Assembly: GCA_022824965.1 (NCBI GenBank)
Contig: JAJDYY010000003.1
Coordinates: 21,753 to 85,752, forward strand
From: Gammaproteobacteria bacterium
GTDB lineage: Bacteria; Pseudomonadota; Gammaproteobacteria; UBA4575
Length of the DNA stretch: 64,000 nt
Direction: 5' to 3'
A model generated the notes under the pieces. It made no database searches. It was given only the letters and a program-made list of their open reading frames with translations, and had not been told where the DNA came from. A program made the position numbers and the translations under genes. Every line of letters begins with the position of its first letter. Position 1 is the stretch's first letter. Below are positions 13,539-24,552 of this stretch, in pieces.

Positions 13539-15383
13539 CTAGACACCGGGCACCACGAGTGCGCCCTGGATCGCCTTTTGCAGCCCCGTCGCACTGCAGG
13601 ACTCCAGGCGAACCGGCTTGTCTGCGACCAGTTCGATTCCCGGCCACTTTCTTCTCAAGGTGACATGCACGATGTTCACCGCATCCTGTGTCCGCAGTTG
13701 TCCGACCTCCGACGCCCCGCTTGTTGCAAGATCTTGTGAAGTGAGCCCTTTGCTGGCAAAGATGCCTACCGCACTTCCCCTGTCCAGGTCCTGAATGATC
13801 TGCTGATCCACGGGGAGCGCCCGGGAAGATGCCTGTGGACCCGGGGAGTCGGCCAGGCGGTCGGCGGCCTGAAGCAGGAAGGTCGACAGGCGTGAGTCAA
13901 GGTATTCGGGGGCCACGAAAAGATGCACCGGGCGTCCCAGCCAGCTGCTCAGGATCAGCATTTCGAGGAGGCTTGCCGTGTAGCAATGCACGACCAGGGG
14001 CCCCTGCTGGGGCAGGTTCTCCAGATCAACGGCCTTGATGCGGTATACGGCCGTCATCGAAGTCCAGATGATCAGGCGAACAAGAAACTCGGGCACTCGC
14101 GTGAAAATGAAAAGGGCCACGGCGGCATTCAGCAGGGCCACCGTGAGGAAAAGCCCGGGAATGCTCAGGCCGGCGCCGAGGAGCGTGATTGCATACACGG
14201 CGGAGCCGATCATGGCAATGGCATTGAGGATATTGTTTCCGGCAATCACCCGCGCGCGCTCCTGTGCCCGGGTGCGTGCCTGCACCATGGCATACAGCGG
14301 CACGATGTAGATGCCGCCGAACAGTCCTACTAGGAAAATGTCCGCACACAGACGCCAGTTGGAGGGGTTGCTAATGAATTCCTGCAGGCCGAGGAGTTCA
14401 CCGGTGGCCTGCATGGAGGTGGCAAAGAATATATCGATACCGAAGAGTGTCAACCCGATCGAGCCGACCGGCACCAGACCGAGCTCGATCGACCGGTTGG
14501 AGAGACGTTCGCACAGCAGCGATCCCACGCCGATGCCCACACACAGCAGGGCCAGGAAAAACGTAACGACCTGTGCATTGGCGCCAAGGGCCAGCCGGGT
14601 GAAGTTCGGCAACTGGGTGAGGTAGGTGGCCCCCAGGAACCAGAACCATGAAATACCCAGGATGGAAAAAAACACCGGCCCGTATTTTCTCAGTGCCGCC
14701 ACGTTGCGCACGGTCTCCACGGCAGGGTTCCAGCGTACCCTGAGCGAGGGTGCCACCGGCGCGGTGGAAGGAATCTGCAGTGCGCTCAGGTAGCCGAACC
14801 CGGCCAGGACAATCACGGTCACGGACACCAGCGCCCGGGCATCCTCTGCCATCCCGACCAGTACCCCGCCCAGCATCGTCCCCAGCAGGATGGCCATGAA
14901 GGTGCCCGATTCAACCAGTGCATTGCCGCCGATGAGCTCCCTTTGGCGGAGGTGCTCGGGAATGATGGAGTACTTGATCGGGCCGAAAAAGGAGGACTGG
15001 GTGCCCATGAGGAACAGGCAAAACAGCAACAGGGGAATGCTGTCGAGATAGAATCCTGCTCCGGCAAACAGCATGATGGCAATCTCGCCCAGCTTGATCT
15101 TGCGAATCAGTTCCGCCTTGCCGAAGCGGTCCGCAATCTGTCCGGCGGTCGCGGAGAAAAGAAAAAACGGCAGGATGAAGAGCAGTGCGGCGAGATTGAT
15201 GATGTAGTTCGAGAGATCGGTTCCGGAATAGCTGCTCTGGAAGGCGATCAGGATGATCAGCGAATTCTTGAATACGTTATCGTTGAAGGCACCGAAGAAC
15301 TGGGTCAGGAAAAAGGGGGCAAAACGTTTCTGTTTCAGCAGCTGGAGCTGGCTATTCGAGCCCGGTTGGCTGGCCTCGGACAA
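13539..15383 (-). CDS. LplT-like MFS transporter fused to a degenerate PlsC-type acyltransferase domain
   Basis: RFAPFFLTQFFGAFNDNVFKN and FGPIKYSIIPEHL are typical of LplT/Aas-type MFS. The C-terminal domain aligns by eye to PlsC but lacks HxxxxD. Confidence 0.85.
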   Translation of the reverse strand: MSEASQPGSNSQLQLLKQKRFAPFFLTQFFGAFNDNVFKNSLIILIAFQSSYSGTDLSNYIINLAALLFILPFFLFSATAGQIADRFGKAELIRKIKLGEIAIMLFAGAGFYLDSIPLLLFCLFLMGTQSSFFGPIKYSIIPEHLRQRELIGGNALVESGTFMAILLGTMLGGVLVGMAEDARALVSVTVIVLAGFGYLSALQIPSTAPVAPSLRVRWNPAVETVRNVAALRKYGPVFFSILGISWFWFLGATYLTQLPNFTRLALGANAQVVTFFLALLCVGIGVGSLLCERLSNRSIELGLVPVGSIGLTLFGIDIFFATSMQATGELLGLQEFISNPSNWRLCADIFLVGLFGGIYIVPLYAMVQARTRAQERARVIAGNNILNAIAMIGSAVYAITLLGAGLSIPGLFLTVALLNAAVALFIFTRVPEFLVRLIIWTSMTAVYRIKAVDLENLPQQGPLVVHCYTASLLEMLILSSWLGRPVHLFVAPEYLDSRLSTFLLQAADRLADSPGPQASSRALPVDQQIIQDLDRGSAVGIFASKGLTSQDLATSGASEVGQLRTQDAVNIVHVTLRRKWPGIELVADKPVRLESCSATGLQKAIQGALVVPGV

Positions 15384-16626: not shown

Positions 16627-17427
16627 TTACCAGGGATGCAGGCTCAGCCAGTAGCCACCCCAGACAACCAGCCCTGCGCCCGTCATCATGCGGGTCGCAG
16701 TGGGTGAGAACGGAAGGATTTTCTCAATCAGGACGAAGACTGCGATCAGCAGGACCCAGAGCATGTTCATCACGCCCACGGCGAGCAGCACCGCCATCAG
16801 CGCCCAGCAGCACCCCACGCAGAACATTCCGTGGTACAGGCCCATCTGGAAGGCACCGCTCTTGCCATCCTTCCAGGCAGCCATCAAGAAGCCGAGCGGT
16901 GTCCTGCACTGGTTCAGGCAGGCGTCCTTCATCGGGGTCATCTGGTAAATGCCGGCCAGCAGGATGATTGCCCCACTGAGCAGGTAGCTGTTGTTGTACA
17001 TCATCGGGTCGAGCACGTTGCTTGCATGCAGGGGCCACTGGATGGCGCTCGCAAAAAAACTGTACAGGGCCCAGGCGACCAGATACCCCGCCAGGAAAAT
17101 GAAGGTGGGGGCGTATGGCTGCTGCCTGAGTTTCTTTTGCCGGCTGACGGTGGTGAACATCATGACCATCGGGGACACACTCGGCGTCATCATGGCGATC
17201 ATCATGATGAACCACATGAGAAACAGCATCAGGAAGTCCCAGGCCGTCCAGGCACGCATGCCGCCCATCGGCGGCATCCACATATCCACGAGGTGCATGT
17301 TCTCCATGGCCCATGCCATATAGAGAATGTATAGCCAGCACACGCCTGATACCAGGATCAGACCTGATATGACGATCTTTCTGTCCTGGGGAGAAAGTCC
17401 CGCAACGGGTGGAGTGGGAGCATTCAT
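16627..17427 (-). CDS. DUF2182-type predicted metal-binding integral membrane protein
   Basis: MWFIMMIAMMTPS, YQMTPMKDACLNQCRTP and GMFCVGCCWALM; multiple TM helices, Met/Cys-rich. Confidence 0.8.
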   Translation of the reverse strand: MNAPTPPVAGLSPQDRKIVISGLILVSGVCWLYILYMAWAMENMHLVDMWMPPMGGMRAWTAWDFLMLFLMWFIMMIAMMTPSVSPMVMMFTTVSRQKKLRQQPYAPTFIFLAGYLVAWALYSFFASAIQWPLHASNVLDPMMYNNSYLLSGAIILLAGIYQMTPMKDACLNQCRTPLGFLMAAWKDGKSGAFQMGLYHGMFCVGCCWALMAVLLAVGVMNMLWVLLIAVFVLIEKILPFSPTATRMMTGAGLVVWGGYWLSLHPW

Positions 17428-17725
17428 GGGAGTACCTTCCTGACTTTATTGGACGATCGGATTACGGATACGTGAATCGCGCTGCGAAGAGCAGACAAAC
17501 CGTCTGAACCATCAGCGGCAATCATACTTGATTGCCTGTACGCATAAAAGCCCGGCACCCGACCGGCTCGACGAGAGCAGGCAAGGTCGACTGACCCGCA
17601 GACCTGCGCGGCGAGCCGGTGCACAGTATTTCAAGCCCGACTTTTTTAGGCTATACTCAAATGCAGTCCTGCATGTGTTTTGGCAGGTTTCATGTTTTAT
17701 TCTTAAATAGGCCGGGAGGTTTGCT

Positions 17726-18334
17726 ATGGCGACGACAGACTGGAGTGTAGAGGGCAACTATTTCGAGTCCTGTACCTGTGACAATTTATGCCCATGTCTT
17801 TTGCTGAAGGACCCGACCGTGGGATCGTGTACAGCCCTCGTTGGCTGGAGCATCGATAAGGGACATTATGGCGATGTCAGTCTGGACGGAATCAAGGTCG
17901 CGGTTTGGCTGCATGCCCCGGGTAACCTGACGGCCGGCAACTGGCGTCTCGCACTGTATGTTGACGAGGCTGCGGATGATGCACAATTCGAAGCCATCTG
18001 CGCCTTGTGGAGCGGCGAGGGTGGTGGTCACCTGGCGGTGATCGCGAGCCTGGTCAGCAATGTTCTGAGTGCCAAGAAAGCCAATATCAGCTTCGAGAGC
18101 ACACCGGAGAGGAAGCACCTGGTGATTGAAGGGATCGGGGAGAACGAGATCGTCCCGATTGAAGGAGAAGAGGGCAAGCCTGTCGTCGTATCCTGCACCC
18201 CGCTTGCAGTAGCTCCGGGAAATCCGATCACCTTGCATCAGTCCACGACTGCACAGTACCGCGATAACGGCATCGACTGGTACGAGTCCGGCAAGGCCGC
18301 GCTGGCTTCACCGTTCCAGTACGGGCCCGGCTGA
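17726..18334 (+). CDS. DUF1326 domain protein (no signal peptide)
   Basis: W.VEGNYFESCTCDNLCPC Cys cluster; divergent from the DUF2182 gene. Confidence 0.8.
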   Translation: MATTDWSVEGNYFESCTCDNLCPCLLLKDPTVGSCTALVGWSIDKGHYGDVSLDGIKVAVWLHAPGNLTAGNWRLALYVDEAADDAQFEAICALWSGEGGGHLAVIASLVSNVLSAKKANISFESTPERKHLVIEGIGENEIVPIEGEEGKPVVVSCTPLAVAPGNPITLHQSTTAQYRDNGIDWYESGKAALASPFQYGPG

Positions 18335-18704
18335 GTCCATACCGCAACGAACTTCATATGCATTGAGCACCCAGGCGTTCCCAAGCCTGGGTGCGTGTGT
18401 ACAGGCGATGTGAGACAGCACGCACCCTCGCCCTGATGCTGTTTACAGCCCTTCCTTGACCCGTTTTGCCAGTCCGGCAAATCCGCTCATCCGGAGACAG
18501 TCAGGAAAGCTTCCTATACTGTTGATTTGAAAAGGTATCCACCATCCTTGCTTGGGGAGTAATATCCTGCAGCCCGGGCAGCCTGCCGACCTGTTTAAAG
18601 AATAGCCATTTTGGGCTATGATATGCGGTAGACAATTTTTCGAGACGACTGGTTTGTTTCATGCAAACCGGAGCGATTTCAGACGAGATGGCAGGAGAAC
18701 TAAC

Positions 18705-19406
18705 ATGTCAATTTTTAACAGAAGAAAATTTTTAAAAGCCACCGGGTGCACGATGGCTTTGGGTTCGGCGGGACTTGGGATCTCGCAGGCCTCGACCGAA
18801 AATGCAGTGGACTGGAAAGTGACAGGCAATTATTTCGAGTCTTGCACCTGTGACAACGTCTGCCCGTGTCTTTTGCTGAATGACCCGACCGTGGGTTCAT
18901 GCACGGCGCTTGTCGGCTGGCGTATTGACAAGGGTCATTATGGTGATGTCAGCCTGGACGGCACGAAAGTGTCCGTGTGGCTGCATGCCCCGGGAAACCT
19001 TCTCAATGGCAACTGGCGCGCTGCCCTGTATATTGATGACCAGGCGAACGATGCCCAGTTTCATGCCCTGAAGTCATTGTGGAGCGGTGAAGGCGGGGGT
19101 CACCTGGGTATAATTGCCAGTCTGATCAGCGACCTCATCAGTGTCAAGAAGGCCCATATCACCATCATGGACACGCCAGAGAGGAAACACCTGGTGGTGC
19201 AAGGCGTGGGTGAAAACGACATTTCCCCCATCAAGGGAGAAGATGGCAAGGACATCGTCCTGGCGCATACTCCGCTTGCCGTTGCGCCGCACAACCCGAT
19301 CACGCTGCACATGTCCAAGCGGGCGCGCTACCACGATAACGGCATCGACTGGTATGAGTCCGGCAAGGCCGGGCTGTCCTCGGCATTCCAGTACGGACCT
19401 GCCTGA
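18705..19406 (+). CDS. DUF1326 domain protein with twin-arginine signal peptide
   Basis: MSIFNRRKFLKATGCTMALGSAGLGISQAS leader followed by a close paralogue of 17726-18334; RBS GCAGGAG. Confidence 0.8.
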   Translation: MSIFNRRKFLKATGCTMALGSAGLGISQASTENAVDWKVTGNYFESCTCDNVCPCLLLNDPTVGSCTALVGWRIDKGHYGDVSLDGTKVSVWLHAPGNLLNGNWRAALYIDDQANDAQFHALKSLWSGEGGGHLGIIASLISDLISVKKAHITIMDTPERKHLVVQGVGENDISPIKGEDGKDIVLAHTPLAVAPHNPITLHMSKRARYHDNGIDWYESGKAGLSSAFQYGPA

Positions 19407-21705: not shown

Positions 21706-22149
21706 TCATTCTTCAGGCTTTCCCGCATCCGCCTTAAACCCGGCTTCGCAAATTCCCGCAACGGCGCAATGCTCATCCTCGTCAGACACATCGCCGGAGA
21801 TGCCGACGGCACCAATGATCGCATCGCCGGCATCGCGCACGAGCACGCCTCCAGGCACAGGCAGCAGCCGCTGGCCGGCAACCTGGGCGAGCGCATTCAT
21901 GAACACGGGCCGCTGCTCACCCATCTGGCCCAGGGTGCGTGATGAGACGCCGACACCGATCGCACCCCATGCCTTCGCGATCGCCATCATCGGGCGCATG
22001 AAGCTCGCGCCATCGGCACGCGACAGGGCCTTGAGGTGGCCTCCGGCGTCCAGCACGGCTACCGCCAGCGGCGCCAGCTTGCGCTTGCGTCCTTCGCGAA
22101 GGGCAGCATCGATGATTGTGTTGGCAAGTTCTAGCGTGATCTCGGTCAT
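21706..22149 (-). CDS. GlcG/HbpS family heme-binding protein
   Basis: VAVLDAGGHL, AIAKAW, GGVLV and GAVGISG. Confidence 0.88.
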   Translation of the reverse strand: MTEITLELANTIIDAALREGRKRKLAPLAVAVLDAGGHLKALSRADGASFMRPMMAIAKAWGAIGVGVSSRTLGQMGEQRPVFMNALAQVAGQRLLPVPGGVLVRDAGDAIIGAVGISGDVSDEDEHCAVAGICEAGFKADAGKPEE

Positions 22150-22294: not shown

Positions 22295-22663
22295 ATGGAT
22301 GCATTGTTGCTTGTCGCCCACGGCAGCCGGAAGCCCGGCTCGAATGACGAGATTCGGGCGCTGGCCGAGAGGCTTGCACAAACTCCGGGGCACCGCTTCG
22401 ACTGGGTCGACTGCGCATTCCTGGAGATTACCGAACCCTCTATTTCCGAAGGCGTGCTCGGCTGTGTACGAAAAGGGGCAAAGCACATTACCGTGTTGCC
22501 TTATTTCCTGGCCGCAGGCCGGCATGTCGTCGAGGATATTCCTGCAGAACTCGAGAAAGCCAGGCGTGACCACCCGCAGGTGCGGATCACGTCTACCCCC
22601 TACCTCGGCGCAGCCCGGGAAATTCCGGGTCTTTTGGCCCGCCTCAGCCAGGAGACCGGGTGA
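22295..22663 (+). CDS. CbiX/SirB-type single-domain chelatase
   Basis: LLVAHGSR, AFLE and PYFLAAGRHV.EDIP. Confidence 0.85.
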   Translation: MDALLLVAHGSRKPGSNDEIRALAERLAQTPGHRFDWVDCAFLEITEPSISEGVLGCVRKGAKHITVLPYFLAAGRHVVEDIPAELEKARRDHPQVRITSTPYLGAAREIPGLLARLSQETG

Positions 22664-24054: not shown

Positions 24055-24552
24055 ATGCCAGGCGATCGCGCACTGAATTTCCTCGGGCTGCTGGCCTGCA
24101 TCGCCTCGCTTTCGTTTGCCATCATCTACCTGGAAGGGGTACTGGGCCTGGACCCGTGCCCGCTGTGCATCCTGGACCGGGTCGTGCTGGTTGCGCTCGG
24201 GTTTGTGTTCCTCCTCGCCCTGGTCCACAACCCCGGTGCCTGGGGATCGAGAATGTACGGGGGACTGGCAAGCGTGCTCAGCCTCGCCGGGGTTGGGCTT
24301 GCGGGCCGGCATGTCTGGTTGCAGGGCCTGCCAGTCGACCAGGTGCCAGAATGCGGGCCGGACCTGTATTTCATGCTGGAGACCCTGCCCGCCCTTGATG
24401 TCGTCAGGCAGGTGCTGACCGCTTCGGGCTCTTGCGCGGAGGTACACTGGACCTTTGCAGGACTGAGCATCCCGCAGCAGACATTGGTCCTGTTTGCCGG
24501 GCTGCTGGCACTCTCGCTATTCCTGGCGCTTAGGCCTCGCCCAGCGGCTTGA
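24055..24552 (+). CDS. dsbB: disulfide bond formation protein B
   Basis: PCPLCILDR and a second Cys pair (ECGP...GSCAEV); four TM helices. Confidence 0.92.
   Translation: MPGDRALNFLGLLACIASLSFAIIYLEGVLGLDPCPLCILDRVVLVALGFVFLLALVHNPGAWGSRMYGGLASVLSLAGVGLAGRHVWLQGLPVDQVPECGPDLYFMLETLPALDVVRQVLTASGSCAEVHWTFAGLSIPQQTLVLFAGLLALSLFLALRPRPAA

Follow-up and report, generated by a model that had tools for sequence, protein, structure and literature searches.

Within a 64,000-nt stretch of a gammaproteobacterial genome (the window, whose numbering is used for all positions below), a gene for a membrane protein of the PpoB2 family (PF09948, formerly DUF2182) is divergent from two tandem genes of the DUF1326 family (PF07040), here called DUF1326-A and DUF1326-B. 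This anatomy is near certain. The host genome is 1.74 Mb in size and 97.6% complete, and it carries no DUF1326 or PpoB2 gene beyond these three. Its relatives are uncultured gammaproteobacterial metagenome-assembled genomes, many of them derived from sponge metagenomes, lying near the labels "Ca. Porisulfidus" and Thiotrichales. Where handles are needed, G000–G014 are genomes of this family, G222, G306 and G381 are genomes of other lineages, and L016, L024 and L030 are contigs.

The PpoB2 gene and the two DUF1326 genes

The PpoB2 gene (16627..17427, − strand) encodes 266 aa and matches profile positions 1–186 of 188 of PF09948 with 217.1 bits against a cut-off of 28.7 (E = 2.5e-64), which makes it a full-length family member. 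The Met/Cys-rich motifs for which the initial annotation had singled it out are present as described: MWMPPMGGM at residues 49–57, CLNQC at 170–174, and CVGCC at 203–207. DUF1326-A (17726..18334, + strand; 202 aa; E = 4e-48) contains ESCTCDNLCPC, has no leader, and is predicted to be cytoplasmic. It is preceded by a sigma-70-type promoter (17629..17657, +; TTTCAA, 17-nt spacer, TATACT) that is conserved in an alignment of the divergent intergenic region from 13 genomes of the family; this promoter is all that is conserved there, with no conserved operator palindrome. The second gene, first called as an open reading frame at 18618-19406 (+; E = 1e-45), contains ESCTCDNVCPC. The two DUF1326 proteins match PF07040 over its full length, five-cysteine motif included, with 164 and 156 bits (cut-off 25), and are 74% identical to each other across 197 aa. 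Both family assignments and the close similarity of the tandem pair, with ESCTCDNxCPC in each and a twin-arginine translocation (Tat) leader on the second only, were thus confirmed by Pfam, by the pairwise identity and by a match of the leader to TIGR01409 (18.2 bits, cut-off 16.7).

The start of DUF1326-B required correction. Because an AGGAG lies 7 nt upstream of the ATG at 18705 and sister species lack the in-frame ATG at 18618, the true start is almost certainly 18705 and not 18618; the three open reading frames otherwise lie where the initial annotation had put them. The resulting precursor has 233 aa and the N-terminus MSIFNRRKFLKATGCTMALGSAGLGISQA|S. Its 29-aa Tat signal peptide (18705..18791, +) reads MSIFN-RRKFLK-ATGCTMALGSAGLGI-SQA|S, combining a twin-arginine motif (N-RRKFLK), an uncharged h-region and an AxA-type cleavage site, all conserved in 5–9 species. 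The mature protein (18792..19406, +; 204 aa) has exactly the five core cysteines and is predicted to be periplasmic. TatC is encoded in the host genome along with about 12 other plausible Tat substrates, including SoxB, SoxY, a Rieske protein and an FccB-like protein. Since RRKFLKATG and SQAS are invariant in five species separated by dS values (synonymous substitutions per site) of up to 1.7, and the ratio of nonsynonymous to synonymous rates (dN/dS) for the leader alone is 0.12–0.17 in these species, the comparative evidence indicates that the leader is translated and constrained, as the initial annotation had assumed. At the protein level it is strikingly similar to the leader of an FccB-like flavoprotein encoded outside the window (MSKLTRRNFLKGTGSTFALGSVGFG; G000 contig C8:981-2261, +), and a BLASTN comparison with the whole genome and the upstream region of DUF1326-A yielded no significant DNA-level donor.

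DUF1326-B has its own promoter (18594..18622, +; TTTAAA, 17-nt spacer, TATGAT), a promoter-scan match conserved in 5 species, followed by a 5′ untranslated region (5′UTR; 18623-18704) that is much more conserved than synonymous sites. Within it lies an 8-bp hairpin (18649..18671, +; CTGGTTTG-N7-CAAACCGG) that is kept in nine species, with changes limited to wobble pairs and no compensatory pairs; it may be regulatory. A second hairpin (18368..18393, +; CACCCAGGC-loop-GCCTGGGTG), identified from the sequence and a five-species alignment, follows DUF1326-A; its pairing is retained in sister species although the sequence differs, and it is probably the transcript end, although a clear T-tract is lacking and a terminator scan did not call it. 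An Rfam search of both intergenic regions returned no match.

Origin and retention of the exported copy

Throughout the family, genes for a major facilitator superfamily (MFS) protein, a ferredoxin, in some genomes Dps, and PpoB2 lie on one side of the locus, and DUF1326, DUF1326-B where present, an M23 peptidase and the ATP sulfurylase Sat lie on the other. The tandem pair occurs in 8 of the 12 other species of the genus and a single gene in the remaining 4; the other genera of the family mostly have a single gene. In single-copy species the slot of DUF1326-B is occupied by genes for a 61-aa YgaP-like membrane protein with a C-terminal cysteine (L024:6618-6803, −) and a 136-aa secreted, cysteine-containing orphan with no Pfam match (L024:7017-7427, +), in the same layout in L030; both are missing from the window, and no DUF1326 remnant was found in this slot. 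By maximum-likelihood phylogeny, the A genes and the B genes of two-copy species form sister clades (support 100/98) that exclude the single-copy congeners and have identical species topologies, and the B stem is three times longer than that of A (0.18 vs 0.059). The core of the B promoter resembles the family-wide A promoter. The exported copy is thus the product of a tandem duplication that took the promoter along, within one subclade of the genus, and the two genes are probably transcribed separately.

Both copies have been retained under purifying selection across at least nine species, with dN/dS values of 0.03–0.06 for A and 0.04–0.13 for B. DUF1326-B has exactly five cysteines, the core set, in every species, compared with seven in single-copy relatives and five to seven in A, whose copy in the window has its extra cysteines at positions 92 and 157. 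Its histidine content is about twice that of A (7–11 vs 4–5), and its isoelectric point is higher (about 5.7 vs 4.5). By these comparisons, after the duplication DUF1326-B gained a Tat leader and histidines and lost its non-core cysteines. Stray periplasmic thiols would be a liability, because the window also encodes DsbB (24055..24552, +; PF02600, E = 3e-39), part of the periplasmic thiol-oxidizing system. A recent, lineage-specific duplication might also leave a neutral or decaying copy whose N-terminus resembles a leader by chance, but the selection analysis effectively refutes this explanation: B is constrained over nine species, its leader included; it has its own conserved promoter, ribosome-binding site and 5′UTR; and its loss of non-core cysteines is directional.

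Ligand layout, distribution and copper setting of the two families

The DUF1326 family comprises 5,298 clusters (50% identity, E ≤ 0.001). Five cysteines, C16, C18, C22, C24 and C35 (CxCx3CxC...x10...C), are invariant among 38 aligned sequences. The AlphaFold2 model of DUF1326-A (predicted local distance difference test, pLDDT, 95.8) is rich in β-strands and places all five in the connection of strands 1 and 2, the loop of the first β-hairpin. Its closest solved folds are acetoacetate decarboxylase-like proteins (PDB 3bgt and 3cmb; probability 0.99–1.0); with TM-scores of 0.40–0.43, 7–10% identity and no cysteine cluster in those enzymes, this likeness of the β-cone justifies no functional inference. 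A sequence search of the PDB with the DUF1326 profile found no relative. DUF1326 matches PF07040 only, and not PF00403 (HMA), PF04314 (PCuAC) or PF02630 (Sco), to which its fold is unrelated; a chaperone role would therefore be by analogy with the classical copper chaperones.

Among 401 species-level genomes of the class, 40 encode DUF1326, and of these, the window genome aside, 38 of 39 also encode PpoB2. PpoB2 lies within 1.5 kb of 40 of the 52 DUF1326 genes, in most cases on the same strand. The association of the two families, which the initial annotation had called frequent neighbors, is genuine and general; its description of them as uncharacterized and of unknown function was out of date, as discussed below, an outcome that the annotation itself had named as refuting its proposal. 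An N-terminal extension is lacking in 109 of the 122 cluster representatives whose N-terminal motif is intact; four have Tat leaders and two have Sec leaders. A Tat-type DUF1326 gene stands directly upstream of PpoB2 in an abundant marine gammaproteobacterial group (P0060, 205 contigs), and Tat leaders occur in several other groups; the tree indicates at least three to four separate origins of the leader. All 11 exported forms examined contain exactly five cysteines. In G222 and G381, both with 1.1-Mb genomes, a Tat-DUF1326/PpoB2 operon coexists with a signal-less DUF1326 gene elsewhere and with one PpoB2 gene (the genes surrounding the signal-less copy of G222 are unrelated), and G306 has the Tat form only. 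The two-sided arrangement has thus arisen at least twice, with DUF1326 able to partner PpoB2 from either face of the membrane. Most organisms have only the cytoplasmic form and some have only the exported one. The proposal that one five-cysteine module sits on both sides of the membrane, functionally tied to a Met/Cys-rich membrane protein, is thus supported. A further assumption, that Tat export implies a cofactor loaded in the cytoplasm, did not hold: the existence of Sec-type exported forms argues that the cofactor need not be inserted there, and speaks against an iron–sulfur cluster.

For PpoB2, residues invariant in 35–120 orthologues were combined with a positive-inside topology prediction to assign them to membrane sides. 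The predicted periplasmic loops contain M41, M44, M49, W50-M51-P52-P53, H134 and P141-M142-M143; transmembrane helix 2 carries a methionine ladder with i/i+4 spacing (M67, M71, M75/76 and M79/80); and the predicted cytoplasmic side contains C170xxxC174, H199 and C203xxC206C207, beside segments rich in lysine and arginine. The AlphaFold2 model has ten helices, and a fold search with it retrieved no solved structure at E ≤ 0.001. In the marine orthologue encoded directly after a Tat-type DUF1326 gene (L016:6850-7764, +), periplasmic loop 1 is extended by a 33-residue Met/Asp repeat, MNMNMNMDMGKPMDMDKPMNMDKPMDMPMNSDM, of the pattern MNMNMNMDM...PMDM. Of 11 clade-specific PpoB2 substitutions, three flank the periplasmic motifs; they are inseparable from shared ancestry and so are not evidence of co-evolution with DUF1326-B. 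Methionines outside and cysteines inside would be expected of a Cu(I) pathway but not of a transmembrane thiol relay, and in the predicted topology this layout points to a direction of metal flow. The eukaryotic copper transporter Ctr1 follows the same ligand logic, with methionine motifs outside, a Met-lined transmembrane helix and cytosolic Cys/His ligands; its fold and size differ from those of PpoB2, and we found no structural or sequence similarity between the two.

The initial annotation had left open whether the three proteins relay metal, sulfur or electrons across the membrane. In an electron, thiol-disulfide or persulfide relay, PpoB2 would act like CcdA/DsbD or like sulfur carriers of the YeeE type between the two DUF1326 proteins, which might themselves carry an iron–sulfur cluster. 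Cysteine-rich partners on both sides, a sulfur-oxidizing host with Sat, Sox and Fcc genes, and the fact that Tat is the obligatory route for periplasmic iron–sulfur proteins would all suit such a relay. A CcdA/DsbD-type relay, however, needs a membrane cysteine pair accessible from both sides, whereas the conserved cysteines of PpoB2 are all on the predicted cytoplasmic side, its periplasmic Met and His residues are incapable of thiol exchange, and its model has no fold similarity to solved structures. The one-sided forms argue further against an obligatory two-sided relay and the Sec-type forms against cytoplasmic cluster insertion, and the pair is also common outside the sulfur oxidizers. 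We therefore consider metal the best fit among the relayed species and a thiol or electron relay very unlikely.

Members of both families have been studied elsewhere. The tyrosinase PpoB1 of Marinomonas mediterranea is the specific recipient of copper from PpoB2 (PMC2855505), and PF09948 now carries the Pfam name "PpoB2, copper chaperone". The Marinomonas protein, the founder of PF09948/COG5486, shares with that of the window the full family domain, a polytopic architecture, Met/His/Cys motifs and an implied role in copper delivery. It differs in that no DUF1326 partner is described in the ppoB1-ppoB2 operon; no tyrosinase gene adjoins the window locus (its neighbors are Dps, ferredoxin, MFS and DUF1326; the remaining genome was not searched for one). 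In Nitrososphaera viennensis, copper limitation raised expression of the DUF2182 gene NVIE_016320 and its neighbor about 6-fold (log2 fold changes of 2.60 and 2.64; PMC7785015 supplement).

The DUF2182/DUF1326 pair of Ruegeria lacuscaerulensis, named DmdE/DmdF in 2026, is essential for demethylation of dimethylsulfoniopropionate (DMSP), and pairs of this type occur in ~2% of marine prokaryotes (PMC12992908). The families and the adjacency of the genes, which in Ruegeria are genetically required together, are the same as in the window. The Roseobacter genes, however, lie with dinB in a DmdR-controlled dmdA-acuI operon, whereas the pair of the window lies beside Dps, ferredoxin, M23 and Sat, and dmdR, dmdA, acuI and dinB were not found beside the pair in the window genome or its relatives; nor is an exported DmdF paralogue described in PMC12992908. 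Purified DmdF consumed H2O2 with release of O2, and reactive oxygen species rose in a dmdF mutant (PMC12992908). These data raise the alternative that DUF1326 is a DmdF-like peroxidase or catalase-like enzyme deployed against peroxide in both compartments, with PpoB2 supplying metal or otherwise supporting it and Dps, which is encoded directly downstream of PpoB2 in the window genome and several congeners, belonging to the same stress response. The O2-release assay, however, used 1.76 M H2O2 and very high protein, with no metal or cofactor analysis (PMC12992908), and a metal-thiolate protein could react non-specifically. Many family members that have the pair lack Dps at this position, as do other lineages; the gammaproteobacterial homologues are phylogenetically distinct and unlinked to DMSP genes (PMC12992908); and peroxide defense leaves the Met-outside/Cys-inside design of PpoB2 unexplained. 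We regard this alternative as unlikely.

The copper enzymes and chaperones of the host provide a further setting. Its genome encodes a CuA/diheme COX2 with COX1 (caa3-type), a cbb3-type CcoN, a Tat-exported multicopper oxidase, and a single CPC-type P1B ATPase with N-terminal YHS/TRASH-like DPVCGM/DPVCEM motifs. None of the 15 family genomes sampled (G000–G014) has an HMA/CopZ domain, and 13 of 14 control genomes do. No B-bearing species (nine in all) encodes PCuAC, which is found in each of the four single-copy congeners and in 9 of 10 further genera of the family; canonical Sco (~150 bits) is likewise absent from all nine and present in all four. The only Sco-family gene left in B-bearing species encodes a divergent Sco-like lipoprotein (G000 contig C7:87303-88055, −, outside the window; PF02630, 60 bits) with CSEINGCP replacing CxxxC, which in relatives lies ~2.5 kb from canonical Sco. 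All these species retain the same CuA COX2.

A metal-detoxification or buffering system can be weighed against the same data. DUF1326 would then soak up Cu, Ag, Cd or Hg in each compartment much as a metallothionein does, with PpoB2 as exporter or as a partner in sequestration. The five-cysteine cluster fits, as do the Met-rich periplasmic motifs, which are also typical of copper-resistance proteins, and the recurrence of the design in many unrelated lineages. PpoB2, however, is needed for copper loading of an enzyme and not for resistance (PMC2855505), DUF2182 is induced by copper limitation and not by excess (PMC7785015), and the pair is kept in streamlined genomes of 1.1–1.7 Mb alongside the loss of classical chaperones. 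We judge a role in detoxification rather improbable.

A candidate Cu(I)-handling module

The reading that we favor, with a probability of roughly 0.5, is that PpoB2 and DUF1326 form a Cu(I)-handling module on both faces of the membrane. The anatomy of the locus and its evolutionary history are secure, and from these we infer the function; the metal would be soft and thiophilic, most likely Cu(I). PpoB2 would take Cu(I) on its periplasmic Met/His ligands and pass it along the methionine ladder of helix 2 to the cytoplasmic Cys/His cluster. DUF1326-A would bind Cu(I) in its own cysteine cluster as a cytosolic chaperone, a role otherwise empty because the whole family is without HMA/CopZ. DUF1326-B would be the periplasmic equivalent, either feeding PpoB2 or taking up the copper that the sole P1B ATPase exports; in the latter case it could supply the CuA oxidase and the multicopper oxidase exported by Tat, and in this subclade it may have succeeded the lost PCuAC and canonical Sco. 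Export by Tat would allow the five-cysteine site to fold, perhaps with metal already bound, ahead of its exposure to the oxidizing, DsbB-dependent periplasm. The copper route to the cbb3 oxidase in Rhodobacter capsulatus runs through CcoA, CopZ, CcoI and SenC/PccA. The logic proposed here would resemble it in comprising import, a cytoplasmic chaperone, export by a P1B ATPase and periplasmic chaperones that load oxidases; the proteins are non-homologous, and the window genome lacks HMA/CopZ, PCuAC and canonical Sco, so the likeness would be one of function only.

Several observations weigh against this assignment. Five thiols are unusual ligands for an oxidizing periplasm. The topology of PpoB2 is predicted, from a model with a pLDDT of only 79.9 that has no structural homologue, and no copper regulator, operator or copper gene adjoins the locus. 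The sole biochemical report on the family calls DmdF a peroxidase (PMC12992908). The two DUF1326-annotated genes of N. viennensis lie elsewhere in the genome and barely responded to copper limitation (log2 fold changes of 0.4–0.65; PMC7785015 supplement). The gain of DUF1326-B and the loss of PCuAC and Sco concern nine species in one clade and hence one event; G014 lost both PCuAC and Sco without gaining B; and the pattern of PCuAC loss was not replicated in the Tat-bearing lineages G222, G381 and G306, all of which keep PCuAC. For these last three reasons, that DUF1326-B may have replaced PCuAC and Sco is a lead and not a result. A stronger version would make DUF1326 a new class of Cu(I)-thiolate chaperone and, together with the PpoB2 permease, a complete non-canonical copper supply line; in this symbiont clade A would replace CopZ, and B would replace PCuAC/Sco in loading CuA and multicopper oxidases. 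We consider this version unlikely. Copper handling as such agrees better than peroxide defense, metal buffering or a redox or sulfur relay with how the ligands are laid out, with the response to copper limitation and with the distribution of one-sided forms.

The neighboring genes, by Pfam, encode a Dps/ferritin-like protein, a 2Fe-2S ferredoxin, Sat, the M23 peptidase and the MFS protein. Dps, ferredoxin and Sat had been noticed at the outset as a possible functional setting; they are indeed present, and we rejected a functional link of the pair to them, since their association is synteny at the level of the family and is absent in other lineages. The MFS protein (13539-15383, −; 614 aa) neighbors the ferredoxin throughout the family. 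We considered it as a CcoA-like copper importer and set this aside; compared by eye alone, we take it to resemble an LplT-type lysophospholipid transporter that is longer by ~200 aa at the C-terminus. Close downstream of Sat are genes for an HbpS-like protein of the heme-degrading type (21706-22149, −) and a small CbiX-type chelatase (22295-22663, +), as well as DsbB.

New here are the origin of DUF1326-B by duplication, the repeated origins of exported forms that keep the five cysteines, the ligand layout of PpoB2, and the pattern of chaperone absence. DUF1326 and PpoB2/DUF2182 are widespread, and the pair is essential for DMSP demethylation in Roseobacter. Unlike the characterized examples, the locus offers a natural pair of cytoplasmic and exported forms of one protein, together with a membrane partner whose ligand arrangement suggests which way metal flows, in a clade where three classical copper-chaperone families are missing and copper enzymes are kept. 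If the copper reading is true, bacterial copper trafficking would gain a new chaperone family in DUF1326, and a copper dependence of DMSP demethylation and of other DmdEF-dependent processes would be suggested.

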